Assembly: GCA_000934665.2 (NCBI GenBank)
Contig: KZ538490.1
Location: 62,001 to 126,000 of the forward strand
Source: Catajapyx aquilonaris
Taxonomy: Eukaryota
DNA length: 64,000 nt
Direction of reading: 5' to 3'
Shown piece by piece: positions 7,790-48,591 of this stretch. Positions within the stretch are counted from its first letter, which is position 1, and the number at the start of each line of letters is the position of its first letter. The translations under genes and the position numbers were made by a program. The notes beneath the pieces are model-generated. The model saw only the letters and a program-made list of their open reading frames with translations, searched no databases and was not told the origin of the DNA.

Positions 7790-8288
7790 TAGTTGAATCC
7801 GGATATAACAGACTTTAAGAGACCGCGGAAAAAAGCATGTAATAGCCAAATCGCCACTTTTGCAATAAATACACACAGTTTTCTGCTTCTCATATGCCTA
7901 TAATGCACACTACTGCAGAGTGATTAATGAAACTATATACACAAATATGCGAAATTAGTTCACTCGTAACGTATGTATAGGACCAAAAAAAAAATCATGC
8001 ATTTTCTTATGCCAACTTCTTGCTAGTTATACCTGAAAAATAATGATTTTGATATTTTCGTCCAGTGTTAGATCAGTGAGAGATGGTCCTCGCATGGGAA
8101 AAGAAGCTGAGTAATCAAAAGCAGCATATTTTCCCACATCGGGGCCAAGAAATTGTCTGTTATAGCCGACGTGAGGTGAAAAGGAGTTTGCTTTATCAGG
8201 AGTAAAAATACACAGGGCCTTATGGAAGTTTGCCGGACCGGCCTTTCCAGTTTGTTATAGCCGAGGTTGTTATATCCGGATTCAACTG
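7790..8288. mobile_element. Non-autonomous pogo/Tigger-like (Tc1/mariner superfamily) MITE, about 500 bp
   Basis: Perfect 20-bp terminal inverted repeat AGTTGAATCCGGATATAACA (7791-7810) / TGTTATATCCGGATTCAACT (8268-8287). The right end reads CAGT inward; TA lies left of the element; subterminal gttatagccg repeats; AT-rich non-coding interior. Confidence 0.8.
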
Positions 8289-14200: not shown

Positions 14201-16685
14201 GGTGCAAATTAGCCGAAAAACTACAAAAAAATATTTTGGAAGCTTAAGCCCATAGACTCGACATTTAAAATAGTGCCCAAAGATTTTTAGAGAAATGTAT
14301 TCAGCTGACTGAATTACTGGAGTAAATTTTGTCTCAATTCAATTCCCATATCCACTGAAAAATTTGTAAGCGTAGAAAGAGCAAGTTGAGCAGAATAACA
14401 GCGCAAAATAATTTAGAGAGTAGTCCGAATATCCACCAAATTATTTAAAAATCGCACATTTCCCCGGCTAATTTGCAAATATGACACGACAAGCCCGTTT
14501 GAAGTTCCGATGATTCAAAATTTCCAGCGTGGTATTTACCTGGCAGGTAATACATATTTATTTGCATATTGCGGCCAGATATTTGTTATTTGCAGTTGTT
14601 TTTGTGTCAAATCCTCGCGGGAATGGTACAGGGGAATCGCTGAAAAATGTCCCGGCACGAACAATTTGTCTCCCCCCCTCTCGAAATCCCAGGGTCCCCT
14701 CACCCCTCCAGTTTGCAACCGTTTATGTAGCCGTGGACATAACAGGTTTTTGTCCCCGCCACAGGGACGTACGACACCACTTAATTTCCCCGCCATTTTA
14801 ATCCTCTTCATCGTTAATTAGCGCTTGCAGATCGCGCGGACTAATTTGGTGGGGCCCCGGTTTGGAAAAAGAGACAAGCTATGACGGAGAGACCTGGGCA
14901 TTAAAAAAACGAGAGTTTTTCAGTCAATGACAAAGCTGAAAAGGCAATGACAAACTAAAGGGGGAGGGATGGGGCGGGTTAATTTGATTCGTGTGTACAT
15001 CGGGAAGCCTGCGGTGGCGCACGCTGGCTCTTGAAATAGACAACTGAATCAGCAGATCAAACAGCACTTGGGCCTCCCATGTGCGCAGGGGACCCATGAA
15101 TTGAGGAAGAAATCTGGGTCCGGTATCATCCCATAGAAAATGCCGGAAAACGCGGGGGTTTCTGATACATGCTGCATGGAGTTATTGTCGCGGCCTTTTT
15201 TTTTTTTTTCGGGAGCCAGGAAAATCCCAGATATACCTAGTGCATTATGAAAAACCCCTTGGACGATTTGTCCTTTCCCTCCAGGCTATATGGAGTGCCG
15301 GGCTCTTTATAGGTGATAGGCTTCCACTTGTTTCCCGGCGATATCCACTGCGGGAGTGGGTGGTGGTGGGTGTATAGTGAGTGGATGGGGGGGGATTTAT
15401 ATTACTAAAAGGGACCGCATGATCTGACTGAGATATCGATTCCCTCTTTTCCAACCATATCGCCTTCTGTTGTATCCCATTTTGTCGATTACCTGATAAA
15501 TGCGTGTAATAGAGAACTTCCAGAATGGTCAGATTGCAACGCGTGCTGGTGAACCGCAAAGTGGTAGCTGGCAATATTTTATACTCGGAGAGAGGGATTT
15601 GTGCAGTTTGGCTGCGTATTATGTGCTCCTCTCTTTTTTTTTGCGAATTTTTTTAAAGGGGAATTGTGTGGGGGTAATATTTTCTGTGCGTATTTGGTGT
15701 TGAATGGGCAACAATATTGACGTATTGACTTCCACCCCTTCAGCTTCTTTGCCAGGGAGTAATTACTTTCGCACGAAGTCACGAATGCTGCTGAAAGGTC
15801 TATCTTGTGTGGGATTATTTGGCTTGATATTTTTATATTGTTTGCAGAATTAATGTGGTTGTGCGTAAATATGCGCTGAATTAAAATGTGGCGGGTATAT
15901 TGTCACAGATGAGTGCAGGCGATTTTAATAGAGTAAATAGCGGAGTTATGTTGATTTTGAGGGAGGGACAGATTTTTTTTCGGGTCGTATTTTTAATGAG
16001 GAAACATTGTTGACGCACGCTGTGTTAAGTAGTGCAGACCAGACTATTGTTATCGGGAGTTATTTTTGCAGTTTTATATGATTTGATTCCAATATGATTT
16101 GGAGTCAATACAGTATACGCGTATGTCGTGTTTTATACAGGGTGTTCAATTTGCAACGGATAGACTGAAATTTCAGTTATGCCCCGTAAATAACTGCCGA
16201 CACGCAAAAAATCGCAATGTTGGAACACACTATAGGGAGAATGCATGTAGCTATTTCCACGCTGCACAAATTATATGTCAAATTGAATTAATAATCCCGA
16301 CAGTCCCCTGTTGAAAAGTGGCAGTATTTTGCATGAACGGCTTTATTATTTAATCCAACTTGGCATGCAAAATAATATTGGGGTGAACCATTCGCTTATT
16401 TTCTTATTTTCATTACAATTTATCCTAACTGGTAGGTCTAACACACAACTCCCAATAGAGCGTGACGAGCAACAAATTCTGTAGAGAGCAATAACATGCA
16501 CGGTGCACTATTCCTATATCCAATAAACAGGGGCGAATTTACACAATTGGTGTAAATTTTATGCTGACGAAACTGGTTAGTTATTTTTCTATTATGCGCA
16601 TTTGTTCTGCTCTGGGAATTCAGTTATTATATTTTAAAATAGTGTGTTCGTAAAGGCTGGAAACAAAGTATGTACAATGAGGCTG

Positions 16686-16796
16686 AAATTGTTTTGGCCA
16701 CTTTATCCTGGTCTTGAAGCGACCCTTCACACACACACATTTCCTCACCGTGGGGCCTGTGAGAAGGGTTGCTTCAAGACCAGGCCAAAACAATTT
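16686..16796. repeat. Inverted repeat or long hairpin, 111 bp
   Basis: cctggtcttgaagcgacccttc (16707-16728) pairs with gaagggttgcttcaagaccagg (16763-16784) with one G-U. Outer aaattgttttgg pairs with ccaaaacaattt across a 9-nt bulge. Confidence 0.8.
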
Positions 16797-19049
16797 GAGC
16801 CCCATAGTACCTGACGACAGTTATTGTACTATATAGAGGAGCGACACACACTTCCTAAACAAAATTGCCATCGTGTCATGACCTCGACATTGAAACTCTC
16901 GGAGAAATCCGGTGTCAGTCTCCAGCTAGAAAAATGCTCTCAAGTTATGATAAGTGTTCCAATGAGCATAACGTAGGTAACTAAATGGGCTGTTGGGGGA
17001 TGTGGAGAGAGGGAAGAGTTGGGGTGGGAGGGGAAAAGGGGAGTGTTTAGGGGTGGTAATCTGGGCTTATCTCCCTCCTTGTAACCATCTCCCCCGCAAC
17101 CGTCACACTAAGACCCCCCTTGTGCCGACACCGCCGAGAGTGGGTCCAGGGGTTAATGAAGGTGGAATGAGATAATTAGTTCATTTCCGACTTTGGGGCT
17201 AACCGAGAAGATAGTCGGTAAGCGAGCCTTGGATTCTGGCCGTCGAAACATAATACAGAATGCCCAGGGCATGGCAGGGTGCTGCTAGGGAGAGAAGGGG
17301 TTGAAAAGACGCATTTTTTTTTTTCTGAAATAGATAAAAAGAGCTGGGTTTTTTTTGATTATAATCCGGGTTTCCCCTGCACTGTGCTTCCGTTATGGGA
17401 GGGGAAAGGAGGAAAGATAGGCCATTTTTACCTCCTTTTCACAAAATAGCCGTCTCTTTTGGGGATGATGCTGGTTGTTCAGTTTTTGAATCGAGCGCGC
17501 GATTAGTCCGATACGATTGGCCCAATCCGATTCATACAAGGCGAGAATCTTTTGTGAAATTCAGGTTAGATTAGGTCGCACACTTCCGAAACAATGCTCA
17601 TTTTGTGTGCTCCTTTCTCAATATTGCGGGCTGCGATAAAAAGGCGTCGGTGGCCGGGGGTTCGATAAGCGACAATGCTGCTTGCGTAAAGTGTTCATTT
17701 GCGATTCCGACCGTCCATTTAATCCGGCTTTGGCCCCCTTGTCGTATAAGACACGCCTTTTTCGGTGGGAGGTTGTAATTATTTGAGCATTTTAGCCAGG
17801 GCATGCGGAGTGACATTTTCAGTGCGGGTCAGGCCCCTCTCACTGTTACAACCCGCTCAATCATTTAGCGTGTAGTGCCCCGGCTAGTGGGATCCACTAA
17901 CGCTGCGGTCACACGGCGATACTTGACGTTAGTTGGTAGCAAGCCTGGCTCATTATGAAGTAAAAGAGCTGCTGTTGCTTGGAGCGCAGGTGTTGGAACA
18001 AGGACAGAGGAGAGCATGCCTGAGACCACCGGGAAACCTCTTTTTACAGCTACGGAGCTGGGAAAGCTAGAGTATAGTTCATTTTCGCCCATAAATTGAG
18101 ACGGAAACATTTGAGGAGTTGATTTGGGTATGCAACAGCGGGCGCCATCTTGGTTCGGATGTGTTTGGTGCTAGCCGCAATGTTTTCCCATAAGAAAACG
18201 GGCAAATTGCCTCAAAAGGAGCCACAAACTGTTGAGAGTCAATGCATGAAGCGGGCGCCATTTTCCGGGTGTACAAGAAGGCGGAATTTTTGCGAGAAGA
18301 CTCTGGGGGAAGGGTAAAAATAATCGGGCAGGATTCGGTCGGAGTCCGCGGTGTGGCCACCACCGTCGGCGTGGTGGCGTCGAAATGAATAAGAAAACCA
18401 CCCCCGGTAGCCTTCCCCTCCTCCCAGTCGGGCAGCAGGTGACCCTGGGTAACGTGCGACACCTTTACATGATGTTATATTTAAGTGGCCTGTCCGCAGG
18501 AGAGGTTTTTGGGGTTAAGTGTGGGTGGGCCGCTGCCACTTCTCGCCAGCCCAGAACTGCCAGGGTTTGGGGCCTGGCTCCGTGTTGCGCAAATGGACTT
18601 TGGGTGTCGGAAGGTAGTCCTGTCAGACCTCAAACGTTGTACTCTTGCCCAATCGGGGGTGGAGGGAAGGGGGAGAAGGGGGAGGCAACGGGTGTTACTG
18701 TTCCGTTTTAATGCCCACCTCTATACAGTCGCCGGATTCTTAAGGATTCGGCTCAATGCGATGTACTGCGGGTTTAAATCACGCGGCGTGGCATGGGAAG
18801 GGGGGACTTTTTGCTTAGTTTCGTAAAGCTCGCCTCTGAATATACCGGTGATAGGTTACTCCATGTTAATAAATTTGAAATTAAATTCGTGAAACATCCA
18901 CCATACTTTTGTACAAAAAGTAGCGTCATTGTATTAGTCAAAGCATCACGAATTTTCGGAATTTTTGTTGGGCAATAAAATTTTTAAATACATTTTCAAT
19001 CACTGATATCGTCCGAAGTAGTTATTTTTTGTGTAGCTTGTTGTGCCGC

Positions 19050-19176
19050 GATCCAGATCTAGCAGTGGCTATATAGAATCGGGGAACAACAATCTACAAA
19101 AATATAACAGCTTTGAGCGAAATTTCCTCTAGCTATAACTATTATAAAATGCCCCACGACCTTGGAACACCCTGTA
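19050..19176 (-). mobile_element. Possible Tc1/mariner-type transposon end
   Basis: gaacaccctg|ta at 19165-19176 is TA-CAGGGTGTTC on the minus strand, a common Tc1/mariner terminus. A matching TA-CAGGGTGTTC lies at 16136-16147 on the + strand. Inner boundary is approximate. Confidence 0.4.
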
Positions 19177-22100
19177 TTTGCACCTAACATGACAATTTGA
19201 TTAATTATTCAATTATGTATAGGAATTGACACATAATCATTCATTTTCGAGTTGAAACGACCGGTCCTCTCAAGTAGGCTAGTTATTTCCTACACTTTAA
19301 AAAAGTTTTAAATGGGTTGTTTGATAAAATGTACAAAACTAATTCCTACATGGATACGGTAATGAAATAATTTGTGTCGAGATGATCTTAACTTTCAACA
19401 TGTGGCCCTGAAAAGATTTCTGTACCGTCGAGTGGCCCGCGAGAAATTCCTCTGCAAAAAGAGTAAGCCTTCCATGTTCTGATCCAGGTATACACTTATT
19501 TGAATATAATTTACCTGACCAAATGTTAAAGCCGCTTGACAAATCTTAAGCCTCGGGAAGGGGACTAAGCGGGATGCTATAATAGGGTCTGTAGTGCACA
19601 CTTGAACTCGTGCCATTGCAGCCCATCCTGGGAATTAAGGGCTATCGGCCATTTCGAGCAGTAAGGATTGAGGCCTGGAGTAGGCTCATGTGGATGCCTG
19701 GCATATATATATATAGGGAAGGGGAATGTGTGGCAGCAGCTGGGGGGATGGGGGGTATGAGCTGTTGATTTTCATGTGCAGCTGTGGGCCACTGTTTAAA
19801 CTCTATGATATAACAGTGTGCCGGGCTATAATATGGCCGGCCGGGCGTGGTAGCCCCGGCATAATTTGATATGACATATTGTAACCCCGTGTGGGCACTG
19901 CGATTAAGCTCTTTCCATCAAACGGGCGGTCTGGTTTCAACTGTCAGCTGACACGTGGAACTGCCGTTGTCAAGAAGTGCCCATGAAAAATGCAAGATAG
20001 AGCGTCACTCTCTTCTTCTTTTTTTGGCAGCAGCAGGGTGCACGGGGGGTGATTTCGTTTTTAACATTATATGGTGCGATAGGCATGTAACCAACATGAC
20101 ATGCTGATTATGCCGAAAATATTAGGTTGTAGCAAGTTGCTTATTAGAAATTGAGCTAATTTCTGCACCACCTTGTACCCTGTGACATGGTGTTGGATTT
20201 GAGGTGTACCCTCCATGCCTTCCTCTCAGAAGCTGCGTCTCTCTTTTCCCTCAGCATCCCCTCATCTCTTCCCTCTCTCTCGGTCGCCTGCTCCTCTCCT
20301 GGGACCCCTGATTCAATAACCAAACGCCAGAAGTTGGCCGCTTAATGAATTACAGTTTGCTAAACATTGGGCAAGGGACTAGTTAACGCTAGTTAACACG
20401 GAGGTGATTTTCATACTAAAGAAATTACTATTTCTAACGTGGCGGGCCTCTTAATCGTAATCAAGATTATCAAGGCCCGGCTGGCGAAATAATAAATTCT
20501 GGTGGCGGCGGATGGTGGAGGGGGGGAATCCTATTGATCCGTGAACGCTAATGAAGTGTTATGGCCCTGAATTTTGTTCGGCGTATAAATTAAAAACGCT
20601 AATTGGTGTCTGCAAGACGGGTTTGGAGGTATTCTGCGCCGAGGAAGCTGCTGCTACTCGAAACGGGTGACATTTCCCCAAAACTGGGGAGGGATGAAAA
20701 TTTCATAAGCTGATGCATTATGGGCATTGAGTTTATGTGTAATAATTTACCTGCTGGGGCGATTTGCGTATGTGGCGGAATGTGTTCCATTTTTCATCTG
20801 TTATTAATGGGAATAATTGAGGCGTTTTGGGGGGAAATGGTCATAAGCCACATTGAAAATGTTACAAAGCGGTTTATTTTTAAAATGTTAAATATCGGGG
20901 GGTTCTCCTAATTTAACTATTGAAATAAAATGGGGCGCAAATGACCCAGGATTTGCATGTCTTTGCCGAGCCATGCAAATCGGATTTGAGGTAGAGGGCA
21001 AATGAAATGCGGTGTATGTGGCGCGATATATCACGGGACGAGTTTAAAAAGTCCATAAACGCTGCTGAAATTTTTGTAGCGATTAGTGCAACAATTCACT
21101 GCCGCAATATTAGAGATGCAGTAGATTTTTTTCAAATAAATTAGGGAAATATAAATATTTGATAGAACAGCGCTATCGGAATATTCCATGTTTATATTAT
21201 TAAAAGTATAGAAATAAATGGGAAAATATTGATACATAGAGCAGCAATTTATTGCTTCAATATTGGTAATACAGTATACTGTAGTTTGTATATCGGAAAT
21301 AGTATATCGGAAATAGCGAAATAACGTTATTTATTGACAGAACGGTAATTTCAGAAATAAAATTTATGGGTGGAATTTTCGTCGCACTGCTAGTTACGTA
21401 ATGCTAACTTAGCAGTACCTAGCAGTTAGACGAAAATTCGACCCCATTTTTTAACGGTATTAAAAATAAAATAATGCGAAAATTTTGTGTGTGGAGTGGT
21501 TTAAGCGCAGTCGGAATACTGCAGAATTTTGGTGTTGGAATATGAGTAAAATAAAGCTGATTTTTTTTTTTTTTTTGTCAGACCTGATTTACCAGTTCTT
21601 CCGGAATATTCCAGAAAGAATTATTTTTATGATGTAATATGGTAGCAGATCATGTTTTATTGCCACATTATTCCAGAAATCCGTCCAAAAAAGTATATGA
21701 AACTTAACTACACCGCACTCACCACAAGGCAGGGATCGACAAAAAAAAGAGGGTACTACACCCCCTGCTAACAAACAGTAATTGAGGCTGACAACAATTT
21801 CGATTTAGAGGCAAAGTGCTGATTATGGGGGCACAGACACTGGTCTATTTAATCCGTGACAGGATACAGAGGGTCGGTAATGTGCCGACCATGACAGGAG
21901 AAGCGGTCGACAATTTTTTTTTTTTCCCCCTGACTTTTTTTTTTCCAGTACGTGTGTGCCGATGGAGCTGGGGCAACAGTGAGGGAGAGAGATTTAATGT
22001 GACGATTCCGATGGCGCATAAATAGTCCGGTCGTGCGTGGGAAAATTTCAGGAATCATTTTGGTGCGGAGTAAAAAGCGGGGTTCCTCATTTGAAGGGAT

Positions 22101-25094
22101 GACAGGTGGGCAGGCATCGGATTCAAACCAGAAATTGCAGTAAGTTGTCAAACAGATTTGGGGGACACAGGCGTCGATTACTGTCAATGATTTAGCACTT
22201 AAAATAGCGGGGATTCGAAGGGGTGGCGAGATGGATGTTCCTGTCATTTAATACTGAATGGTGTAATGGCCAAAAGCAGTCGGGGGGTGTGGGTTTTTTT
22301 TGCGTCATAGGTTGGAGCTATTTTGGATGGATTGCATGTTGGAATTTTTGATCTGAAGAATTGATTGAAAGTTGATAAGTTAAAACCGGTTGGTAAATTT
22401 GCCTCGTGTCTTATGCCAATGGATATCGGTGACGAATCGACGTTTTAGATCAAAATAATTTCTGCAATAATTCCACAAATTATAACAAAATAAGTTTTTT
22501 CTTCCCCTCCTGACATATAGACAACCATAGAACACTGTTTATTAAGCATGTAGTGCACACCTAAGCTGGTATATAAGTCTAGTAAAAAACTAGAATAACT
22601 GGCCTGTTGGCGGTACTAAAACTTCGGGCAGTAATAAGTCAAAAAATTATGCGGGTAACTTTTTGGCTATTAATATCGGAAGTTTTTTTTTTTTGCTTCT
22701 TAGTAGCAAATTGAAATAATATGCGCTTCGAGCTGATTGACCGCTAGCACCAAATTTTACTTGATTACTTTGTGGTTCAAAGTTCTTAACTTATGTTGCT
22801 GTTGCTGGATTACTTATCCGCACTGCGTTACTGTGGGTAGTAGATTCATTAGAAATAGTAAAAAGTTAATGTGAAGTTGCAGCTGTTGAAAACTTAGTGC
22901 AACTGATTCTGGGCTAGTTTTGCCCGAGGTTAACAACTACTAAAGCTCGAATAGGTTGTAATTAATTCTATGTACTGTACATATCTCAGTTTGGTAATTA
23001 TTTTGCGCTTGGTAATTCCGGTACCAGATTTGTTTAGAAATAATTCTAACTCAAATGATTGCAAGTTGCAGTTTCCGGGTCAAGAATACTGACTTTGATG
23101 GTTGATGTGACAATTTCCGGCTAATTTCCCAGTCAAAAGGACAGGAGGACCCGAAAAACAAACACCCGGATTCCCTAATGTCGAGAGGAAAAGTTGCGAG
23201 TTTAGAGTTGGGTGGTGGGGTGGCCGTTAAAAAGCTTAAGCTAGGAATCAATTTTCGCTAGGGGGTGGGGGTTGAGGAATTATTGTGATTGCTAGTTGAA
23301 CAGTCACGACGGAACCTACAAGTAGGTGGAATTTCTGAGAATCTGCATGACAAAGTGAGGCCACTTTTCGTCGGGTCAGAGAGTACACGCAGGGAAGAGA
23401 CTGCATGCATATTGGGCTAATGAGGCCGTTGGTTTTGCTGATTGCTGGCGGGGACCAGATTCAAATTCCGCAGGAGCACTTCGTGTTTGCCTTGCCGTTA
23501 ATTTTACCATTTTGTAGCCTTACGTTCGAAAGTAAACAAACCTACCACCCCCTTTGCCTCACCCCCCAACCAGACCCAAGTTCAGGACACAAAAGTTTCA
23601 AGGGGAGTGGATAATTTCGCATCGCAATTTGCAAAATTATACGGGTCCCGAGCTGTGTGTACCGGAGGTGCCGTCTTATAGGGCGCTGCTTCGTTGGGCA
23701 TAAGCAAGACTCCGGAGGCCCCGGGAATTGGACTCCGGAGGGGTGTGCTGGAGAGGGTGGGGGGTTTGGCAAACAGGCGGGGACTCTTGCCGCCCCCCGA
23801 ACCTTTTTGGGTAGGGGGGAAGTGTCGGGGCGTGATTATAATGTTGCGGCACAAAATTAGGTGCCAGGTAGACCGGTTCGAGCAGTTTGTGTCGTTTGAT
23901 GTCGCGGCGGGGTTGAAATTGGGTGGCATATCATATAGGTGGCGCTGATGTGCCTGGCGTACATCGCTTACGCCACGTAGCGGGCTAGAATATGCGGTTT
24001 AATTGTTCTCTCTAGGTCTATAGGCCCTGTTAGCATCTGATATCTCTGAAATATCTCTGCAACTCGCAAACCTTAGCGACTTTTTTGTCATTAAGCTCCT
24101 CATTACATTTCGAGGGAGACGGCAATATGGAATGTAATGGACACTTCCTTTTGATCAGGGAAGTATCTAGCCGCCGCGCCGCAATGTTCTCCTTGGATTC
24201 AATCAAACTGGGGCATTTCCAATGCTTTAAGTTCGAAAATACATTGGCAATTGGGAGCCTAGCGGGATACGATTATAGTTACAGGGAAAATTATTGACAA
24301 TCACTACAAATGAAAACAAAGCCTACTACAATAATCGCCAGCTTCAACGCAGATAATAAATGTGTATCATGCGAATCTGCTCGTATGCGACATAGAATGT
24401 ATTTTAAGACTATCAGACTACACAGCGAAATATACTGCTATACAGTATACGATGACTGCAAATTATTCGATTGAGCTAGTCTAGATGCTTTTGGACAGTA
24501 CCGTAGAAGTTGTAAACGGAACTGCGGCCTTCTGAAATAACCGGTACACTTTTATAAGCTATTTTGCGAGTAAATTTTATAATCGCGGCAGTGTATACGT
24601 TTCAGTTATTAAATATTTAAAGCTACTAACTCGACTGCGATACCCCGGCTATAGGGCAGCTGTGATTATTTTAGCCGGCAACCCGTGCCCTATAGAGTTG
24701 CATCCCAATATCTTCTCCATAAGGAGAAATTGAATTACATTGCGATGAGAATTAATGTCGGGCCCAAATGGCCCTCCCCCTTCTCTCCTCCTCTCCCCTC
24801 TACTCCCGCTCCCCTTTTATTGAGCCGCATCTTTTCCCTCTTGTTCGGTTTAAGAAACCGTGTCTAAGCAAGTAAGCCAAACTCATGCTGCTTTGCATTG
24901 TAATAACACAGCAGATTGCTCTGTCTGAAGTTTCCCTAGAGGAGAAACGTATATACGGTCCAATTTTGGTGCATCAAAATTAATTTCAGTCATTGAACGG
25001 TGGGACACAGAATAGCCTGAAGGCTCTTGGAGGAAACCCTTGTCGGCAGCAGCTAGTACATCGCATTTATTTTTGAGGGGGGTGGGGGGGGGGC

Positions 25095-25105
25095 NNNNNN
25101 NNNNN
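25095..25105. other. Assembly gap (11 N)
   Basis: Run of N within a G-rich tract. Confidence 0.99.
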
Positions 25106-26901
25106 GGGGGGAATTATCGATGCTGTGCTGGTAAGCTAATTAAATCGTGAGGTATATGGGAAATGACTGTCATGTTTAGGCCCCTGCACCACAATAGTTC
25201 TCTTTGGGCCCGTTTGTATCTCTGGAATGCTGCGGCCACTGCAGGTCTCCGGGTATGCACCAACTATGTGGACAAAGTTTGGACTTCCGCCCACTCTCGA
25301 CCCCTTCCGGCCCTCGCCTAAAAAAAAGGAAGGGAGGGGGGGTTTAGGCACCGGGTACCACCAACGAATATGTCAAGCCAGGGGAAGAGTTCAAGACGCG
25401 GGTCGGAATACTATTCGGCCTGTTTCAACATAGGCCCGGTACACTTAATATGCCGAGTCTCGTGGAATGGGCTTATTAAGAAGCTAATAGTCGAGGTACC
25501 CATGATGGCTTCGTGGCTTATCAATTCTAGTGCCTTCCGTCTTGGGTAGGAGGGACCTATATGACGTCCATATTTTCGGTATCCACTTGCACATTTAATT
25601 AATAGACCATTTTGTCCTCTAGTGTTCTAAAAAAAATCTTTATAGTCGGCAGTCACCTGCATTAATTTTTTTTAAAGGAAGGGCGAGCTGCCTTTCAGGA
25701 CAATTAGGAAAAATGTACCTGGAGTGATTTAATTTCCTGCAGGACATCAAAAGTTTTTTTGATCCAATTAGGATTTTAATGACTGCTGGCTGAAAGCGCT
25801 TCCCCCTACGAATAATTTTCGGGAGGACGTACTACAGGGGAAGAGGCTAAGGATTTTGAAACTTTGAGCCGTTCGGAGAGCAGAATCGCACGTCTGGGAT
25901 TGGCCTGGGTCCCCCTGTACCTGCTGCTGCCTACCTTCCTACCTAAACTGTAATGACTCAAGTGCAGTGATTTCCGGCCAGGTTTTTCTCTCAGGGGAGG
26001 TTCTTGCCAATAGATCAATTCTTCCCCATTTGACATCTGAATAAAAATCACACCATGGAAATATCATTAGGGTGCAAACCAAACCTCCTCTCGATCTTGT
26101 AAATAATGCATGCCATCCCTGGTCAATAAAACAATAAAAGTAACACCCAACTTTGTAATTCAGCATTTAGATGAGCAAATAAGGGTAGGCCTCTTCCTCC
26201 TCCACCACCACCTCCCCCTCCCCCCATTGATTATTGGATGTGATATTAGACTTTGTAATGCACGCGAAATATGATGTCGGGTCCATGGGAAACTCCTTAA
26301 TGGAACGCGATTTCAACATCTTGTTTCCTATGCATGACAGAGCAAGACAATGTGGGTCCCGGTTGGAATTTCAAAGCCCCTGTGAGAGTACAAAGGGATC
26401 CCCGACACCCCCTTGGCCCAGGACGAGTTCTTGGGGAATAGGGGAAACTGCAAAGAAAACAGAAAGAATGGGGGAAGGAGCAACGGGGGCGCAGTGGGGG
26501 GACACGCTCAAGACGTCTTCTTTTCAAGGAGGGGGGGTTGGGTGGAGGGGGAGTCCCTACCAAGGAGGCTCCTCCCTTATAATTAGAGGGAAAGATTCAG
26601 GATAGCGAGAGATAAGAGATAGACGAGGGTGCCGCTAGATCAGGGCGGGCAAATAAGGACTAAGTTTTCAGAAGGAGGGAGGAGGGGTGGAAGAAAGGGC
26701 AAAGTGCGGGAAGATTTCCCTTCCGATGCTCTTACGTGCTGATAAGGGTGTTAGTGGGTCAGGAACCGGAAGAATCGGGGGATAATATGCTTCTTTGAAA
26801 GCGGGAGGAGGGAATTTTTTGGTCTTTTTGGGTGTAACTAAGAGGATGGTGGCTGCCACAACTTTTGCAAGTGTGTAAACTGGTGATGAAGCGTGATTGT
26901 G

Positions 26902-26936
26902 TATTAATGTGTGTCCTCTCTTCTTTACAGGTAAGT
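26902..26936 (+). promoter_or_regulatory. Candidate recursive splice site (ratchet point)
   Basis: tattaat (branch-point-like), then gtgtgt, cctctcttcttt (pyrimidine tract) and acag|GTAAGT: a 3' splice site directly abutting a perfect 5' splice site at 26930/26931, on the host gene's strand. Confidence 0.72.
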
Positions 26937-27789
26937 CCTGACTGATGCATTGTCAAGGGCTTAATTCTGCCATGGGAACTTTCGCTAACGCTTTAGTCAA
27001 GTCAGGTAGGGTCAGGTAATGCCCCCCTCTTTTACCAAAAAAGACGGAGCCGATGTAACAACCCTTCCTCTCTGCAAAATTTGGCAAACTAAGTGCACAA
27101 TGTCATTAATACGGTGCCATGCATCAGTGTCGTATAGGTAAGCTCCTACATGTATCAAGTTGAAATTAATTATTCACGCATGCCCGTGGTTAATATCGAG
27201 GGCCCACCCAAACTTGAGCATTTTGACCCAGATTTTGGAGGTTTGTTTGGGGAATCGCAGAAGGCAAAAAGCTTGGCTGGCATCGTTTAGCCCAGTGGTG
27301 GCGGTACCTTGAGTAATTGCGTCCGGTCATGCAGAACGTCCAGGGGGGCCATTGTAATCAGTCTGGTCCTGCCCGTGGCGACACCGAACTCGTCGAGAAT
27401 CGGGTATCGGTCCCTGCACACTCCGTCCCATCCATTGTTAGCTTTTTCCCTCACTGGCGGCCATCTTGGCTCAGATGGACCACGAAAAGGCGGAGGATCA
27501 ACCTGCGATTCGTTCCGCCCTATTGTACCGCCATGTCGTGATGGCATTGCACAATCACGGGTGCATGCAGGTACCATGCACCACGGAGTGATATTGCCCA
27601 TCGAAGCCGCCGTCGCGTCGCCACCTTTAGTGAAATATGTCATCGACCTGGTATAGGCGGGCCTAACCGATATAGCTGCTAGCTACGGCTGCTATAAATT
27701 AGCTGCTAGAGAAATTGTAACCACTAGTCGGCATTTGGCTTCATGGGAATCAGACATTATAATCCGATGAGCCTCCAATGAAATCATGA

Positions 27790-27990
27790 CCAAGCGACGA
27801 ATGAATTTAGAACATTATGTGTGGCACCGTTACGAACGGTCACTATAAGAAGGACCGTGAGGGAAGGAAGCGGCCTTGGCCATTTTGGACAGGAAACCAT
27901 CCCTGGAATTGATGTGGAGAAACACACACGGATGGTCGGCTCCCCGTATTCGAACCCAGGATCTCCCGAATGGCAGCCAGAACAATCGGA
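27790..27990 (-). mobile_element. tRNA-derived SINE fragment (boundaries approximate)
   Basis: The minus strand reads ctggctgccattcgggagatcctgGGTTCGAATAC, a Pol III B-box in T-arm-like context (27946-27956). The body ggaaggaagcggccttggcc...atccctggaatt resembles arthropod tRNA-SINE bodies (recalled, not searched). The A-box is not recognisable. Confidence 0.6.
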
Positions 27991-30344
27991 AATAGCTTTT
28001 GTGAGGAGAGCAGTTGTAGCAGCTAGCACTTAGAGTCATCATCTGGCAACCTACTGCTTTCTTCGAGACAGGCGCGTTCTGAGAATATGGCAAGCAAGGA
28101 AAGAAAGGACGAAAGATGCCAATAGTAAAACTGTCCCCAACCAATCAGAAGCCGCTCTTAAATTTTTTCTCGTTTCTGCCCGGACCTTTGCTCCCGTGCT
28201 GATCTATTGGCTCCCCACATGTCCACCGTCACACGTTGCCAATTTTAATTTTCCCGGCACAGGGTTGTCACGGCAGCAACATGTGTGCCCCGCACTATTT
28301 TGCCGATCCTTCTTCCGTCGCTGCGGCTTAGCTGACGTCCTCGTCGCCAGTCGGTTAAGCAGTCTATGTTTCTCCGTGTCATTGGTTCGAATTAACTCCG
28401 GAAGGAAAGTATGCGCGAAATACCATGACGACGCGGTTTAATTATAGTGTGCTCCCCCCCACCCCTACCAGGCCCCCCCGGGTCCATCTTTATGGTCACG
28501 GGGTTGACGGTAGACTAATTCAGGGCCGGCGAACTAACTCTGTACTCGTCAAGGGTGATACATTTCGAGTGGAAAAGGCGGGTATCTAGTGGTGAGGTGC
28601 TGGAAAGGGGGTGGAAGAAGTAGAGAGAAAAGAGAGAGAGAAAAAAGGTACGGGAAAATGAAGTGAGAATCCGGACGTAAAAAAGTCTTCTGTGCTGGCG
28701 CGTTCTTCCCTTCCTTCTCCTCCACTCCCTCCCTTCAACCAGGGCTAAAGGCGTGAGGCGCAAGTTGGGCGCTTTCCCACGATGCTTTCAACACTAGACT
28801 GTCATTCCTTGAGCTGGGTATTCGAAGGGCCGTTAGTCCCAAGTTCCAGCCAGCCTCGGTTCCAATGGAGTGATTTTTTTTCTTCTTCATTCCTCTTCTC
28901 TCTCTGCTGCCTTCTGCTTCTTCGTCTTCGGGGTGATTCGCATCCTGTACTTTTTCGGTGGGTTCGTATACCGCATTTTTCCTCCCCCTGGGATGTTTTT
29001 GTTGACAGTGTACTGCCCTGAATAGGATTTGCAGAATTTTTAGACGTGGTAGTCATGCGGTCATATTGTACGGTTCAGCAAATTGCTCGGTTAGTCACGT
29101 TTCCTTCAGAAAAAAATGGCTATGTGCAAGACCTGTAGAGCAATGTTCACATGTAGGCCTACTTCCCCTAGAAACTGTTGAGTACGGTTGGGTTGCACCA
29201 TTGTAGGTAAATATGACAATCAACCATCAGCGACCTCAATCGCACAACAGGTGTGTGTTTAAGAAACTTGATATATTACTGCACAAATAGGTATGAATGA
29301 GCCTTTCGGATTACGAAGTTCCTGGTTTGAGGCCACCATTCGGCCACATGTGCCTCACCGGTTTGCAGAGATGTAAGGATATGTAGAGAGAATGAGGTTT
29401 ATTGCATCAGGCTGAATAAGTCATTCTGAACCTTGTTTACGTAAAATGCTGCAGAACTTTTTACATACTGGCTTAGTACAAAGCAGTTATATGCGTACAC
29501 AATGGAATGAGGGCACTCTATACAGTAAAGGCCAGCTTTCACCGAGTGCAACGAAATAAATCCTGCACGAAGTACTGAATTTAAAATTGTGTACTGGCAA
29601 GTAGTTCATTTTGTGAATATGCGATCAAGATAGAGTAGTTAAATTTTGATTATTCCATCAGTTGTGGTGCCAAATATTAGCAATAATGTTATATAATTTA
29701 AATAATAATACGTTGTTGATATGAGCCCTCGGGAGAGATACATCAGCTAATAGTTATGTTACGTATGCAGTATTATTTCACTCAGGTCGCATGGAACCGC
29801 TGCGTTATAGCCAAATACTTTTGATGTAATTCATGGCACCGTTTGCGGATCCATTAATTTTTTGCACTAAATACTCTGATTCTATTTGTAATCCAATGTT
29901 GCTGATATAGCTGGACGATAACATTTGACCGTGTGAACCCGCCGTGCAAGCGTTCTTTTTCCCCCTCCGTTTCCCTTCTTTCTCCAAATCTGGAATCAGG
30001 TGTAAGTGAGTCCACTTGAACGAATGGGGTCTTTGAGAGTTGGTTTGCAGGCTAGGAAGAGAAGGTGGGGGGGAGGGAGAAGGTAGGTGTATCCGAAAGC
30101 CCGGAGTGTAGTTAGCCGGCGCCTGGCGAATTTTACTTTTTAAGTGGGAGGCCTCAGCTGGAGAAGCGCGGTCGGCTAATACAGGGGGCATTAATTAACT
30201 GTCCAACCTGATAAGATTGATCGTGCTGCTTAGGGTTTCCATTAACAACCCTCTGGCAGCAAGGGCCTGCCCTGGCCTATATTGTATGCAGTGTTGTTGA
30301 GTCAAGTTTCCAATCTGGGTTGGGCCCCTGGTTTTTGAAAAACT

Positions 30345-30367
30345 GAGAGAGAGAGAGAGAGAGAGAG
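30345..30367. repeat. (GA)n microsatellite
   Basis: Direct reading. Confidence 0.9.
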
Positions 30368-33300
30368 TAGGCGGGTAGGACCCCAGTGTGGGTGGGAGGG
30401 TTACACATGTAATTGAGCCGGTTGCTGTAATGGGATATCAACATGGTCAAGGCGGGTAGTTGCGGTGTTGGGATGGACGGAAATAATTTTGTAATAGATT
30501 GGGAGTGGGGTGCGGATAATCGTTGTGAAGTCATCAGTCATTTGGCTGGAGGGGAAAAACTCTGAAGACTTTTTCGGAGAGGTCATTTAGGCGGGTGGCT
30601 GGTCCCTAGTGGATCGTATAAAAGACTGCCTGTCATTTTTTTGGGGAGCTAGGTGGTCAGCTGGTCAGCTGGAAATGAATGTGCAGAGGGAGGGTGGGTC
30701 TGATATATGAGGCATTTTTGTGTGGACGCCTACTTCCAATTTCCTCCCCGAAAATTTCCAAGTCTCCACCCTCCGAAACTGATTTTGCATGTGGGCCCAC
30801 CCACCCCTCGCTGCAAATGTGGATTTGCACATCTCTTGGAAAACCTGCCGCATATCAAAATCAGAGAGTTCTTCATAACATTGAAACGCAGGTCCAGTCA
30901 TGAATACTCTTCAGGGACGCCTCGTTCCGTTCCAAATTAATGCGCACATCATCTTTCACTCTTTCATTTATTCACCGGCTGCCTGCACATGCATGAAAGC
31001 GTAATGAACACAAGATGGACGTTACAAGGCTGCGGTGCAGTAGAGGAGCTAAAATATATATATATGCCCACACACGCACCCACGTTCCTTTTTGGGTTTT
31101 CCTAAAGTAATAACACCGCGTTAACATGTGGGACGACGAGCGGTAGCCGGCAGTGCAAACATTTCTGATGGAGAGACGTATCGGAATAAATTGGAAAAGG
31201 GAAGAACATAGATGCCCCCGTTTTGAACGCGGGCTTTTGAAAGAAAACAGGCCACGAAAAATATTGAGGAAAGGATATGCGTTGATATGGCCCCCGCTCT
31301 CTTTCCAAGCCCCTTTTGTCTCGGTAAACACGGTTTATTTTAATTATTCTCGCGACTTATCAATTCTGGATCACTCGCTATCCCCGGGAAGCGGCGCGAA
31401 GCCCTCCAAATCAAGAAAAATTTTCTGCTCGGTCGAACATGATGTATTGAGTCGCTAAGGCGGGGCGCTTCCTCTACTGCTTTTCAGGCTTGGAATTAAT
31501 GAATAAAGGTTCCGGAGCACTTTTTTAAAAAACCGAAACGGGGCGCGACCTTACTGGAAGAAAAAAAGAAAAAAAAAAACCCGGGGAGCTAAAATCATTT
31601 GAGATTGAAATTCGACATAAATGGTGTGACCGCCCTGGGAGAGAAACGTTGACTTAGCGCGACGTTTGATGGACGCCGGTTCCGGGACGCCGCACATAGT
31701 ATGTGTGTGTAAGACAATTATTTGCCAGCCCCCTCCCGAATTTGTTTCCCCACCATCTTGATCGACGAACTGTCCCATCACCCGTTTACAAACAGGTGGG
31801 GGGTCCCGCCCGCCTAAATTCACCTCTCTGGCTGACGAGGTCAATTCATCTTCATCAAGTGCGTGAGTGTAGATCCATTTAATTGTGTAGCCATTTGCGC
31901 GGCCATGTGTGCAACTTATGTACGACCACCATTTTTCCTCTTCTTTTTTTATTTCTTTCGGGGGGTTTTCCCTCCCTCCTCTTTCTCCCTGCCGGTTTGA
32001 TAGATTGGGAAGGTGTTAGGGCAGTACAGAGCAATCAATTGCATCGACACGCATGGATAAACGGGGGATCATGGGGAAATCTCTGGGTATATGAGGATGG
32101 GAAGGGGGACTGGAGAGTTTCAGACTCAAAAACGGAAGCCGGCGGGGAGGAAAAGGTCCTGCTCTCTCTTTCGTCGTGTCCATCGATTATTAAAATTATT
32201 TTTCGGGCTGGAGGGTTTACTGCTCGGGGTTGAAACGAGCTATTTAGCAGCACTTAGGACGCCAGCAAGTCGTTTCATAAATTCACTGAGGGCAATAAAT
32301 ATCATGCATTTTTCTCACCGTTATGTGTAATTCAATGCACTGTAGTCGTATGAGAAAAATGAATTGTCTATCAAAAAGTGACCTTATCTATGTATACAGA
32401 GCAAAGAAGCCCGCAGTACACTACATTTTTGTTTGTCCCGATGTCACCTGCAGATGCCATTACTGATAGCCTGCATCAACCATATTTAGCGGTCGGGGTT
32501 TCACAGACAATCATCTGACGTACGATAGGCACCTTGATTTACGTTTAGCTTGTCCAGATCGGGGGGATGCCAGCTATATCATTGTAATTGCAGGCAGTAA
32601 ATCATGCGGAACGGATTGGATTCATAAAAATACGGTGGGGTTCGAGTGGGCGGGGTGTTTTGCCAGGTTTTTTTTTTTCCTCTCGGAAAAATTTGAGAAT
32701 TTCGTGACAACGCGTGTGCGCTCATTCCCGGTCTCTTTGTACGCGTCTGCTGCACAGGACGACGTTTCAAAAGCGGGGCCATCCTTCTTACGTCCCAGGC
32801 CATTCACATCCCTTGACCCAAATCCTAGAAAAAAATAGAGAGAGAGAGAGACCCTCTTACAATCCACCTCTCTGTCACAAGCTTTAGGGACATCCAAAGA
32901 GATAAGACGGTGCAAATAAAAATTTCAGGCCCGTCAAGGAGAAACAGGGGGCTGTGCTTATTAATAATTGAACGGGGCGCTTGCGTGACGTGGCTCCAAT
33001 GCAGGATTAATCGCTTCGGCGTTAAGTGCGTACGTAGAAAATGGTTTACGACGAGGGCTGGTTAATTAATCGCGCGTTGCCAGATGCCTGCAAGTACTGT
33101 ACAAGCCCGAGCAAAGCGGTTGCGGGTTTTTTTCCCCCCCTCCCTGTGTACCCGGGCTAATGCACCCTGGAAACAAAACAAGAGGCGCCTTTTGTGCCCG
33201 CAAACAAAACAACCCAGTTTCGGTGTGAGGAGTCGTCCGAAACTCCGCCATAGATCTGCATAGGAGGTAGTACCTGCGGAGCGTAACGAATTTCATCCTT

Positions 33301-36300
33301 TTCAGGGAGAGGCTGTAACCGAGTTGGGCTGGGAGGGAAAAATATATACCCAGGGTTTGTCATCAGAAAGCCTTGCCTTTTCTTTTCGCAGGGGGGGGGG
33401 GGGGGNTCCCGGTGTGCGTTTCTATTAAAATCTTTGCTTTTGTTTGAAACATGGCCGGGTAGTTTACATGCACTCTGTGGAAAAGGGAAGGTGGAGGCAG
33501 CAATAGGGAGAGAGGGAAGAGAGGGGGGCTATAGTATCTTTCATCCTAAGTTTGTACGTGCCTCTGGTAAAGTAGGTCTATTATATTAGCTGAATTATAA
33601 ACTTGTGCCAAGTTTCGGGGGAGTGAGAAGGAGTGAAGGAGGAAGAGATTTTCAAGAAGCCCCCCCTCTCTCTCCGTTTCCAATTGCGAGGAAAGAGAAG
33701 ATGGGGGAGAAGGGTTTTGTGCAACCTAGCCTGCATTCCCGTGCCTTTTGTAAAAACAAGTGAACAGGGGCCCGGTCCTCCCCAAAATGCGACCCAAGTG
33801 AGAATTAGACTGGCGAAAGTTGTGTTGGTGGAAAGGCCTCCTCTTTTCCTTTGGAGGAACTTTGCAGGGAGGGGGGTATATCTGATAAAAGAGATATCGG
33901 GGGCTGATGAGGGCTAGTTATTTGGGATTCTGCAATTATGGGTGCAATTCACACTCGGTACGCTACTGGTACGGACTTTGAAAATTTTGAGCTTGTGTGC
34001 ACAGATGATTCAGCCCTATAGTTCAGTCACACGTTAAATCGCACCCTTTAGTACCTGAACCTGGCTCCAAAGCCGGCCCCCTTTTTTCGCTTCCCCTGTA
34101 GGCATGAGCGAGAGCAAGGCCCCTTTCTCCTTTCCTCTTTTCCTCGCCATTCCACATTTTATATTCTTGCGGGAATAAGCCGCGGGTAAATCTTTTCAAG
34201 GCTCCCCATCTCCTTTGGTCTACCCCCCCACCCTCCCCAATTCCTCCCATCCACCCACCCACCCTATCCACATCTCGCTTTTCCCTCGCCTTTCAACCTG
34301 ACGGCCCCTTCCCTCCTTGCCTTGGCTAAAAGGTGGTAATTTGCCTGATGATCTGCCAAAGTGTGATGGATGGGCGATTGAGCCCCGTTACATTTGTCAA
34401 GGAAGACGGACTGAGTGTAGGGAGGCTGGGAAGTGGGAGGGGCCAGGCTTGAGCAGCTTCAGGCTTACCAAAACTCCCAAGGCATCAGAGATTGCGAAAT
34501 CGGGGGCGGGAGGGGTGTATTTGCAGAATCAGGTCGCAAAAAGATTAGTGTTAATGCGTGATCCTGTAAGGGTGTTTTTGAAAAGGCGAAAACTTGCCTC
34601 ATTATCTAAATGGAGGTGCCAAAAAGTGCACATTAGTTAATTGCCAAGTTGGTGATTATATAACACATGCTTTCCTCTTCCTCGTTTTTCTTATAATATT
34701 TTTGGACGGCCCACTCCACCAATCCTCCACAGCATGCCATTGCCATAACCAGACCAATTTGCACCAGGCTCCCTGCCGGTTCGCAATTGTTTCGTGGCTG
34801 CCTCTTCTGAATTGGGTGCTCAAGAAAAAGTATGGGACTAGCCCTCCATCTTTTTTTTCTCCTTCGAAGATGGTTCGGGCTTAATTCAAACTTACGTATT
34901 CATCGCCGTGTGTGGTTATCGGGGGGAAAAGTAAAAGCTAAAAAAGCAGGAGATTCCTCACTTTTTTTTCTGGTTTTTCTAATTATGGCTCGGGATTCGT
35001 TTCCACACCTTGGAAACTAGAGTACAATGCAGTTAACTCGGGAGCTCCGCAGTCCTCGTTTTTCGGGGGTGGCGATGGTAGGGGGGCCCTCTCTCCCCAA
35101 GACAAATAGAGCTCATACATCACAGGGTCTGGAGATGGGTGGGAAAACGCCGGCTGACCTCAGGTGTTGGCCACCGAGGCCTCCCGCTGACCGAACTTTT
35201 TTTTTTCTCTCTCTCGAGCCTACTTTGGCATCCACCTTTTAAAAAAAAGGGCGTGCATTTTCTCCTAGAGCTTCAATCCTAGAGTTGCTATATTGGTGAA
35301 GTGTGTATCGTTTTTAAAAATTTTTTTTTGGTAGAGTGCAGTAGTATTTTTGGATTGCAACTCCCCTTTGAAGTATGCAGCAATATTTCGTTTTTGGCTG
35401 TGCGAATTTTGAAACCATTTAATACGCCATTTTGGCACAGAGCGAAGGGCATGAGATATGCGCCCAATTTCACCGGCGCCGCCGTAACGAAATGCTGCTG
35501 CATCTTTACTGTTGTGTTTGAGTTTGGCTCTTTTGCAGTGGAATGGACATCACTTTCTCTCCGAAGGCCGAGTGGCAGGAAAGAGTTGTGGTAAGCAATT
35601 TCAGGATCCATTGTATACGTCTCCGGAACGAAGGCGATTAATTAGATCCAAGGGGGGGAAAAAAAAGAAAGGATCCTGCTACACAAGCTGCGGTAATAGG
35701 ATCTGGACATAAATGACCTTCTCATTTCTTCATCTTCCCCCACAATTTTTTTTTCCCATCGTCAAAATGGCGATTTTCAATCTTGCTTCGTCCAATAAAT
35801 TAGCAGGAGGTTTGCGGACCTATTTTGCGCTTAAAACGAAACACGCGTTAGGGAATGAATCTTTTATGGCCTCGATACCTGGATTGTTTTCCTCCTTTGT
35901 GCAACACCATTTCAAGCCTCCGCTTTAGAAAAGGAGCTTCTCGCAGAAGAGCTTAACCTCGCCTTCCCCCCCCCCNCCCCCCCCCCCCTGCAGTTATCTT
36001 GCATTATTTCACATATGCCCCACCGCAACTGAATTACTCTGTCGCAACTCGTACACCGTAAATAATTAAATAAATAATGGGGCCCCTCCCGCACGTTTAA
36101 AGCCGCGTACGCACAGCCAACGCCAGCGACGGTTGGCGAGGAAAGTGCATATTTTGTTGCGAAACGGAAGAAATTTACACGATTGCCCCTCGTCAGGATT
36201 TAATGCATAAATTAGCATCTTCATTTGTGCGATGGGAAGGCGGGAAAGGAGAAAGTGGTTCGAGTGGGGGTTGCGGTTTGAGTGGAGGGTGATTAAAGCA

Positions 36301-38532
36301 AAACAAGGATCACCCTGCTTCTAGCATTTACCTGGAAGAGGGAGTTTGAAAGAGTGTCCTAGGAAAAAAAAATACTTGGATTGGAAGAACATAGCGTGAA
36401 GACAATTTCAAGAATATATTTGCAGCGTCTGGTTCAGGAACTGAGACGGAGGAGTCCTATTAGCAAGGCTTTTGGCTGGGAAAGGTTTCGGGACCTCAAA
36501 CTAATTGAGCAGTTGGTCCGATTGGAAAGGTCTCGATCGAGAGAAATATATAGAGCAGGTAGGAATAAGGATTTGGGATCCTAACCGAAAAGGACGGTCA
36601 ACTTGGTACAATTTTTTGTGCGAGAGGACCAAAAAAAAAAAAAAATCGAGCGATTTACCAATTGTGTCTAATAAAAACGAGCAGGTTCGAATCAAGCATT
36701 AGCGGGTTCCGTGTATCAGTTAGCTTGTGAATGACGGATCCTAAGTGGGGTTAACCATGCCCTGTTGTAATCCGGAGCGTCACACAGGGAGGGCCAAAAA
36801 AAACAAACTGGCTCTAAAAGGCGCAAGTTTTGTGATTAGTTGGAAAAAAAAGGAGACGGCGCTGTGTGCAATATTGAGGGAACTAGGAACAAAAATGGCC
36901 CGTGTCGGTCCAAGCGACGTTTTCTTGACGTGGTTGTGTACACGACCTTTTTTTCCTAATGCAAACATGACAAGTCCCATTGGTAAGGCGGACAGATAGA
37001 TGTCCGAAGCAGCCTAATGGAAAGCGAGGATGTTAATGGCCACTTATTTTTTTGTGTGTGTGCGATTCCTCTGTACCTGAAGGTTTAGGAGTGTGTTGGT
37101 CGGACACCCAGAAAAGTGCAATCACTTTCACACCCTCACACTAAAGGATTCTTAACGTGGACATTCTGCTGGGTGTCAGTAGCAGGGGCTTATCGGGAGT
37201 CTTTGTGCCCGACCCAGGGCTTGCTATATGTACGGTCACGTGGCATTAGAAATTGATTAGGTTGACTCTAGTAAGTAGGACCACTTGTTAGAAATGTCTG
37301 GACACATTGCGACTTTTTTTTGTTGAAAATCCGAATTGCGGCTTGGCCAGATTGGCAGACTGACACGTGCAAAAACACTTGTCGTGAGGGCAATTAGGCC
37401 TTGCAGATCGCACTTGAGGTGATGTGGCATGCCTTCTCTCCTGAGGGGGGGAGGAGATGTTTTTAATGGCTGCCAGCGGGTTTCATTTCCATGCTGGGCT
37501 AAAACTGACACACCACTTTGTCCCCTTGGAGAGAAGAGAGCCATGGTCCCAAGAATGCGTAGATGCCCCTCTCCCAGCAGTCTCTCTACTCCATTTCCAG
37601 GGGAAAACAAACGGGCATGACATCCCTTCCCAAGTCGAAATTAGTCGGACGTTTTCGCAGGATAAAGTGGAACTTGTGGACTGCGAACTGCGGCCTTTTC
37701 CCTACTCTCCGTATTTTTCCGGGACTGACATCATTACCTCGTCTTTTCCGGCGGACGGGTGGGAAAGGTTTACGGGGGTACTCCCCTCCTCCCACTCCTC
37801 CTCTCCCTGCTGATTCTCAGGCCTCATAAACTGGATCATTTTCCCAGAGAAAATTGAACGCTGGACACAGCGGGTCCCCCCAAAGTGTCAGTGTTGCGGC
37901 GAAATTCCGGGGATGTTTACCGCTCCTCCCAAGCACTGAGATAGTTTTTTTTTAAAGAAAAAAAAAAGCGGTCTTTAAATTTACCAGCAGTATTTCGGGC
38001 GGCAAAAGTTTTGGCTCGGTGTAAAAGAAAATGTGGTTATGTAGAGTGCCATCCTATATAGCTGGCATTTGTTTCTTCCCGGGGTGTCGTGGGAACTTCC
38101 TGGCGCCCTTGTGGCCCGTCTAAGTCTGCGAGATAAATATTCAAGCCTCCAAATTACTCTAAGCTCGGCTTTGTATGCAGGCCCTTGTTCCGTCTTTGCT
38201 CGCTTGCACCTTCCCTTCGTCTGAGTCGCGATTGGCGAAAAGGAGGTGGTTGAAGAGGGGGGGGGGGGGGGNTCGACCTCTTCCCACCCCCTCCCTGAAA
38301 GAGGATTTATTCTCACTTTGATGCGCTGCGCTGGCCCGAACCGAGCCAGTACTGGGATTCGGTTTTCAAGAGATGGAATTTATGTGGGCGGCGAGTTGGT
38401 ATTAAAATGCAACTTTACAAAGTAGTCTCTTTGTAATCTATTCGTAATTGATAGGTTTTATTTCCATAAGACTCAAGTTTTTTTTTTTGACGGGGTCGGA
38501 AAAAGTTGCGGGAGAACGTGTTTGGGGAAGAC

Positions 38533-38605
38533 GTAGTTCGGTGACGCTGTCGAAAGAGGGCGCTGCTTGGAGTAGTTCGGTGACGCTACCGAAGGAGGGC
38601 GCTGC
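38533..38605. repeat. Tandem duplication, 39-bp period, two copies
   Basis: gtagttcggtgacgctgtcgaaagagggcgctgc at 38533 and gtagttcggtgacgctaccgaaggagggcgctgc at 38572. Confidence 0.9.
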
Positions 38606-43191: not shown

Positions 43192-43224
43192 GACGACGAC
43201 AACGACAACGACAACGACAACGAC
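43192..43224. repeat. (GAC)n/(GACAAC)n microsatellite
   Basis: Direct reading. Confidence 0.9.
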
Positions 43225-48585: not shown

Positions 48586-48591
48586 TATAAA
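48586..48591 (+). promoter_or_regulatory. Possible TATA box of the nested IR
   Basis: cTATAAAt about 260 nt upstream of the IR ATG; motif match only. Confidence 0.25.

Follow-up and report, generated by a model that had tools for sequence, protein, structure and literature searches.

A candidate recursive splice site with a cryptic downstream exon in the long intron of an arthropod onecut gene

The long intron of an arthropod onecut gene carries, at 26930/26931 of its + strand, a 3' splice site adjoining a 5' splice site, a pair that on balance is probably a ratchet point, i.e. a site of recursive splicing within an intron, in the onecut pre-mRNA. Coordinates refer to the window, i.e. the whole 64 kb stretch of DNA that was analysed, and the slash in splice-site motifs marks the junction (Table 1). 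In every respect that can be tested in a sequence, the anatomy of the element fits that of a Drosophila-type ratchet point followed by a cryptic RS-exon, and this anatomy, the rarity of the site and its position in the gene are matters of direct observation. The preliminary description had proposed recursive splicing of this intron within a Drosophila framework; the sequence anatomy agrees with the proposal, and the framework goes too far, the host being another arthropod.

Table 1. Positions in the window of the candidate recursive splice site, its associated elements and the surrounding onecut gene
Feature	Position	Strand	Remarks
Juxtaposed 3'/5' splice sites CAG/GTAAGT, candidate ratchet point	26928..26936	+	donor 9/9 against the CAG/GTAAGT consensus
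Candidate branch-point motif TTAAT (YTNAY)	26904..26908	+	A at 26907, 23 nt before the 3' splice-site G
Polypyrimidine tract tgtgtcctctcttcttt	26910..26926	+	16/20 pyrimidines before -2
Candidate cryptic RS-exon, 75-nt form	26931..27005	+	donor CAG/GTAGGG, 7/9, at 27005/27006
Candidate cryptic RS-exon, 85-nt form	26931..27015	+	donor CAG/GTAATG, 7/9, at 27015/27016
Candidate cryptic RS-exon, 207-nt form	26931..27137	+	donor TAG/GTAAGC, 7/9, at 27137/27138
onecut intron part in the window	1..53237	+	between off-window CUT-side exon and homeodomain exon
onecut exon, (A)CKRKEEQQTQPEHPPAPKKPRLVFTDLQRRTLQAIFK	53238..53350	+	phase-1 acceptor ttttccAG/CC, donor AAG/gtaaaa
Last onecut coding exon	57830..58201	+	rest of homeodomain and C-terminal tail to stop; acceptor AG 57828-57829

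The host gene is represented in the window by two homeodomain exons, the last of which has a Pfam Homeodomain match (E = 2.5e-5). A tblastn search with 11 arthropod onecut proteins against the window returned these two exons and nothing else, and a CUT-domain motif was absent from every frame of the window. Because no upstream onecut exon lies within the window, the host intron must be longer than 53.2 kb. The candidate site is located on the sense strand of this very long intron. From it to the next onecut exon, whose acceptor is of phase 1, the distance is 26,307 nt (53238 - 26931), the exon lying downstream, which matches the distance of about 26.3 kb given in the preliminary description; the 5' end of the intron, and with it the full intron length, is off-window. 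The homeodomain exons are nearest to mayfly and ostracod onecut, and the host is an arthropod that is not identifiably Drosophila. A search with the onecut tail gave homeodomain-limited matches only, covering 33-71% of the query, and the species' own onecut protein was not found in a large protein collection.

Between 79 and 41856, no recognisable coding sequence turned up. None of the 150 open reading frames of at least 75 aa scanned there matched Pfam at E <= 0.001 (150 of the 237 such frames of the window, the other 87 lying downstream of 41.9 kb), and no Rfam family reached its gathering score anywhere in the window. An intact, intronless open reading frame of 631 codons (48850-50745, +; starting MAPLLMLLLVQ) is nested in the onecut intron on the same strand and is followed, 32 nt past its stop, by AATAAA at 50777. 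It has a Pfam Lig_chan match (E = 5.8e-6) under the gathering score and was assigned by Atlas among arthropod ionotropic receptor clusters, and no relative at E <= 1e-10 was found for it among a collection of 5.8 billion proteins. Transcription of onecut must traverse the poly(A) signal of this ionotropic receptor-like gene. Also present in the window are a 50-N run (3978-4027), an 11-N run (25095-25105) and single Ns at 613, 33406, 35976, 38272, 44865 and 55154, which represent ambiguous bases or gaps in the assembly; of these, the 11-N run stops short of the candidate site, being 1.8 kb upstream of it.

Around the junction the + strand reads gtgtattaatgtgtgtcctctcttctttacAG/GTAAGTcctgactg, with the AG of the acceptor at 26929-26930 and the GT of the donor at 26931-26932, and acceptor and donor together can be written tattaatgtgtgtcctctcttctttacAG/GTAAGT. 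Across the full 64 kb of the window, the motif AGGTAAGT is found a single time on the + strand and is missing from the - strand, in keeping with the earlier statement that this is the best AG/GTAAG junction of the intron. Compared with the ratchet-point consensus, the element reads ctcttctttaCAG/GTAAGT, with a 9/9 donor and 16 pyrimidines in 20 positions. The tract before the junction reads cctctcttcttt and is richer in pyrimidines than the one real acceptor with which it was compared (16/20 vs 12/20 at 53237). Further upstream, tattaat (26902-26908, +) contains TTAAT, the sole YTNAY match within -55 to -12 of the candidate acceptor. The tattaat, the tract and the acAG/GTAAGT had all been noted in the preliminary description and were located at the same positions on the + strand when the sequence was re-read. 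Two further features are the AG-free zone of 39 nt upstream of the acceptor, with no AG between 26892 and 26928, and the TT at -6/-5, neither of which was among the elements listed earlier. In fly ratchet points, TT occupies -6/-5 in 196 of 197 cases vs 44% of all introns, according to a preprint (10.1101/006163), and the candidate acceptor shares this dinucleotide. The region from 26000 to 28000 is single-copy in comparison with the rest of the window.

The same upstream sequence bears on whether the GT at 26931 is the ordinary donor of an upstream exon, a possibility that the preliminary description had itself raised; such an exon would be either a coding linker micro-exon or a non-coding alternative first exon. 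Linker micro-exons are known in other arthropod onecut proteins, in which 2 to 76 aa separate SALRL, the end of the CUT domain, from CKRK (linker extractable in 80 of 120 proteins); a 10-aa form, AAAQIPQRG[ST], is found in 42 of these 80, and many inserts are isoform-specific. On comparison of these proteins, the orthologous onecut intron is thus a hot spot for alternative micro-exons in other arthropods, and exons not seen here could lie in between. A coding exon ending at the 26931 GT is nevertheless excluded, because the frame that the phase-1 acceptor at 53238 demands contains a TGA at 26894-26896 and no AG between 26892 and 26928 is available to act as its acceptor. The sequence preceding the GT has the form of a classic acceptor and is not exon-like, and no linker micro-exon of the insect type (AQIPQRG/QIPQRG) with splice sites was found in the window.

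A variant of this alternative dispenses with the exon altogether and treats GTAAGT as a U1-only site, that is, an intronic U1-binding site that suppresses premature polyadenylation. GTAAGT occurs 15 times on the sense strand vs 9.9 expected (P ~0.08), and the nested gene with its AATAAA at 50777 lies on the same strand further down the intron. Other sense-strand 5'ss-like motifs nevertheless occur about as often as composition predicts, and AATAAA shows no depletion, so that there is no sign of a U1/PAS axis. Taken together, an ordinary donor or a U1-only site is a very improbable explanation of the element. Raw counts had suggested that U1-type sites in general are enriched on the sense strand; this reading was dropped for the same reason, since the sense counts equal the compositional expectation. 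For AGGTRAG, the count over the full window was eight on the + strand and zero on the - strand; inside the intron, composition accounts for the sense count, and the antisense strand is mildly depleted, with 0 vs 4.5 expected (P ~0.02, uncorrected). The GC skew is positive over nearly the whole + strand.

The rarity of the element is relevant to the explanation by chance, in which a CAG-ending pyrimidine stretch happens to stand beside GTAAGT in an unconstrained intron and is put to no meaningful use by the spliceosome. The core 9-mer YAGGTAAGT on its own is at chance level, with 1 observed vs 0.81 expected and at least one copy in 51 of 100 shuffles. Pyrimidine-rich stretches are not scarce either: at least 16 pyrimidines are present in 3.8% of the 20-nt windows on the + strand, and 18 YAG/G sites bear such a tract. 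Sense-strand counts of 5'ss-like motifs equal the compositional expectation, as stated above, and the candidate was selected as the best from a pool of about 230 AGGT sites.

The full composite site is much less readily obtained by chance than its core, and, according to how it is defined, 0.002-0.05 such sites are expected in the 53-kb intron part. The combination of AGGTAAGT with at least 16/20 pyrimidines appeared in 1.2-1.3% of Markov simulations of the 53-kb intron, and with at least 14/20 pyrimidines in about 5%. A definition derived from published fly sites, and not from the candidate itself, called for AG/GTAAGT or GTRAGT with Y at -3, TT at -6/-5 and, before these, no fewer than 10/14 pyrimidines; under it the expectation fell to 0.002-0.005 per 53-kb intron part, and looser versions gave about 0.03. 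Since the candidate was singled out after the fact as the best site of the intron, such small P values err on the optimistic side. Pyrimidine-rich windows are also about twice as frequent here as in the Markov model, and a realistic chance figure, itself still somewhat optimistic owing to this selection, is therefore about 0.02-0.08, which brings the full range for the composite to 0.002-0.08.

With the strict definitions, one site is present on the sense strand and none on the antisense strand. A relaxed search recovers one antisense look-alike, ctccctcttcCAG/GTAAAT at 36332 (36324-36350, -), with 15/18 pyrimidines and TT at -6/-5, and it is close to equivalent to the candidate. Close look-alikes of ratchet points thus do arise without ratchet function. 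The antisense site may alternatively hint at an antisense transcript.

Several observations speak against chance beyond the composite itself. The TT at -6/-5, the branch motif, the AG-free zone and the cluster of downstream donors come on top of it, and a site of this strength would hardly be ignored by the spliceosome. Published surveys of long invertebrate introns point in the same direction, with sense/antisense ratios from 4-fold to more than 20-fold (PMC2773006). If the host behaves like the surveyed invertebrates, most high-scoring sense-strand sites in such introns would not be due to chance. Weighing both sides, we regard a chance juxtaposition as unlikely, and as an explanation to be taken seriously all the same.

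Downstream of the junction, three donor-like sites delimit candidate cryptic exons of 75, 85 and 207 nt. The first two, cag/gtaggg and cag/gtaatg, had been proposed previously together with the 75- and 85-nt exons, and their coordinates match; the third, taG/GTAAGC, is an addition. Each of the donors at +75, +85 and +207 nt has 7/9 consensus matches vs 9/9 for the regenerated donor, so that by this count the downstream donors are the weaker ones; donor strength is expressed here as consensus matches only. All three forms of the exon contain stops in all three frames and are thus non-coding and frame-disrupting. In phase 1, with the carried-over base, the reading is GKS*, which bears out the immediate stop that had been predicted after a G carry-over. 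The donors at 27005/27006 and 27015/27016 sit in a local GTCAGGTA duplication and do not count as independent occurrences. AGGTA occurs four times in 215 nt, the densest cluster on the + strand (P ~0.014), of which two copies belong to this duplication.

The cryptic exon could also be read as a conventional, regulated poison cassette exon, which would use the acceptor at 26930 with a donor at 27006, 27016 or 27138, the GTAAGT at its start being incidental; inclusion would lower onecut via nonsense-mediated decay (NMD) or give a protein without the homeodomain. The strong acceptor, the three usable donors, the stops in all frames and the GKS* in phase 1 are in line with such an exon, as is the location in an intron whose counterparts in the onecut genes of other arthropods are a hot spot for alternative micro-exons. 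A 9/9 donor at the first base of a cassette exon would, however, cause the exon to be removed again, and is thus both harmful and unneeded, and the candidate exon is devoid of coding potential. This explanation, which we consider improbable, moreover overlaps with recursive splicing, in which inclusion is the minority outcome of the same RS-exon element. By the same reasoning, any cryptic RS-exon would be expected to yield a poison exon or CUT-only isoform as a side effect, and this is not an independent finding. A terminal exon was also considered and is unlikely, there being no AATAAA or ATTAAA from 26931 until 29555.

Under recursive splicing, for which we infer both use of the site and the order of steps, removal of the intron would take place in two stages. 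U2AF and U2 would recognise TTTACAG as a strong acceptor and TTAAT as the branch site, assisted through exon definition by a weaker donor 75, 85 or 207 nt downstream. The off-window CUT-side exon would then be joined to 26931, by which 26.9 kb or more at the start of the intron would be removed, and the ligation would rebuild a perfect 5' splice site, NAG/GTAAGT. The rebuilt donor would outcompete the weaker downstream donors and be spliced to the homeodomain exon at 53238, and this second step would remove the cryptic exon along with the 26.3 kb still left, leaving no trace in the mature mRNA. Where the rebuilt donor lost the competition, the cryptic exon would be kept and translation would stop after three codons (GKS*), giving a transcript without the homeodomain that would probably be a target of nonsense-mediated decay.

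The closest known counterparts are the ratchet points of Drosophila, of which more than 500 are known, e.g. in Ubx, kuz and Bx (Burnette 2005; Duff 2015; Joseph 2018; Pai 2018; as cited in PMC8605326 and PMC6110457). In the fly model, as outlined in passages of PMC8605326, the RS-exon is defined and spliced to the upstream exon, and the rebuilt donor then outcompetes the weaker donor of the exon; a donor weaker than the rebuilt one has been reported there for both fly and mammalian RS-exons. The content of cryptic fly RS-exons is poorly conserved and usually out of frame, according to the same passages. Portions of a second study report a high-confidence recursive site in 63% of fly introns longer than 40 kb, and a tendency of single recursive sites toward intron midpoints (PMC6110457). 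The candidate resembles these ratchet points in its (Y)nNCAG/GTAAGT structure, its TT at -6/-5 and its very strong acceptor, in lying sense-strand within a very long intron in a developmental transcription-factor gene, and in its short downstream exon with a weaker donor and premature stops. Unlike them, it belongs to another arthropod and is a sequence-based prediction.

Shepard et al. (2009) counted RP-sites per 100 kb in introns longer than 50 kb on the sense and antisense strands, respectively, and obtained 2.20 and 0.10 in fly, 1.03 and 0 in mosquito, 0.48 and 0.12 in bee, 0.81 and 0.10 in beetle and 0.54 and 0.07 in sea urchin (PMC2773006, Table 2). Sense enrichment in these five invertebrates was thus 4- to more than 20-fold, and vertebrate ratios were 0.9-1.5 (PMC2773006, Table 2). 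In the locust NPF1 gene, a site predicted in a 230-kb intron is backed by a U2AF65 pull-down, as described in part of PMC8892266. Like the sites of Shepard et al. (2009) and of locust NPF1, the candidate was predicted from its motif, in an intron of more than 50 kb from an invertebrate other than Drosophila; unlike these studies, which drew on genome-wide statistics (PMC2773006) or on a pull-down of U2AF65 (PMC8892266), it concerns one site and within-window statistics. The non-Drosophila arthropod cases found in the literature searched consist of such computational enrichment (PMC2773006) or, for locust NPF1, of partial evidence (PMC8892266). An exact 24-mer of the candidate site gave no matches in metagenome contigs.

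Vertebrate RS-exons have been described in long neuronal genes, including CADM1, CADM2 and ANK3 (Sibley 2015, as cited in PMC8605326 and PMC6110457), and about nine fully suppressed intronic sites are noted for vertebrates in passages of PMC8605326. The candidate shares with CADM1, CADM2 and ANK3 the involvement of exon definition and an exon that starts with the reconstituted 5' splice site. Inclusion would likewise give a premature stop, and the host gene is likewise neuronally expressed. It differs from the vertebrate RS-exons in its fly-type motif, with a long tract and TT, and vertebrate long introns show little sense-strand enrichment.

The candidate is a predicted instance of a mechanism that is already well described, with hundreds of fly examples known; it opens no new mechanism and settles no open question. 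Confirmation would place onecut, a conserved neuronal transcription factor, among the recursively spliced genes and would document one case of recursive splicing from an arthropod other than Drosophila. Onecut is presumably silent in S2 cells, the source of one published set of recursive-splicing data. In that set, onecut was absent from the nine supplementary files (Pai 2018; S2 cells), and it was likewise absent from the main text of the Duff preprint. A full-text literature search returned no paper on recursive splicing together with onecut, the site lists of Duff 2015, Joseph 2018 and Burnette 2005 lying outside that search.

The dependence on a single GT also has a predicted consequence for the gene. 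In flies, disabling the rebuilt donor leads to harmful exon inclusion, as demonstrated for kuz and Ubx in passages of PMC8605326, and by analogy with these cases a mutation of the GT at 26931 is predicted to inactivate onecut via inclusion of the cryptic exon. A further idea, which we hold to be quite improbable, is that the site is a regulated switch in which the competition between the rebuilt GTAAGT and the three downstream donors is tuned by neuron or stage. If true, NMD would hold down onecut output, or the product would be an Onecut that ends in GKS and has no homeodomain, and recursive splicing would act as dosage or isoform control of a neuronal identity factor. On this reading, conservation of the site across arthropods, if it existed, would also mark recursive splicing as an old pancrustacean solution for the onecut intron.

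A second ratchet-like junction, ttctccctttttttgcagcAG/GTAAGC (53735-53762, +), was observed 404 nt inside the 4.5-kb intron that splits the homeodomain (53351-57829). Its tract has 16/20 pyrimidines and it is without TT at -6/-5; the tandem gcAG/cAG at this site could alternatively delimit a 3-nt micro-exon.
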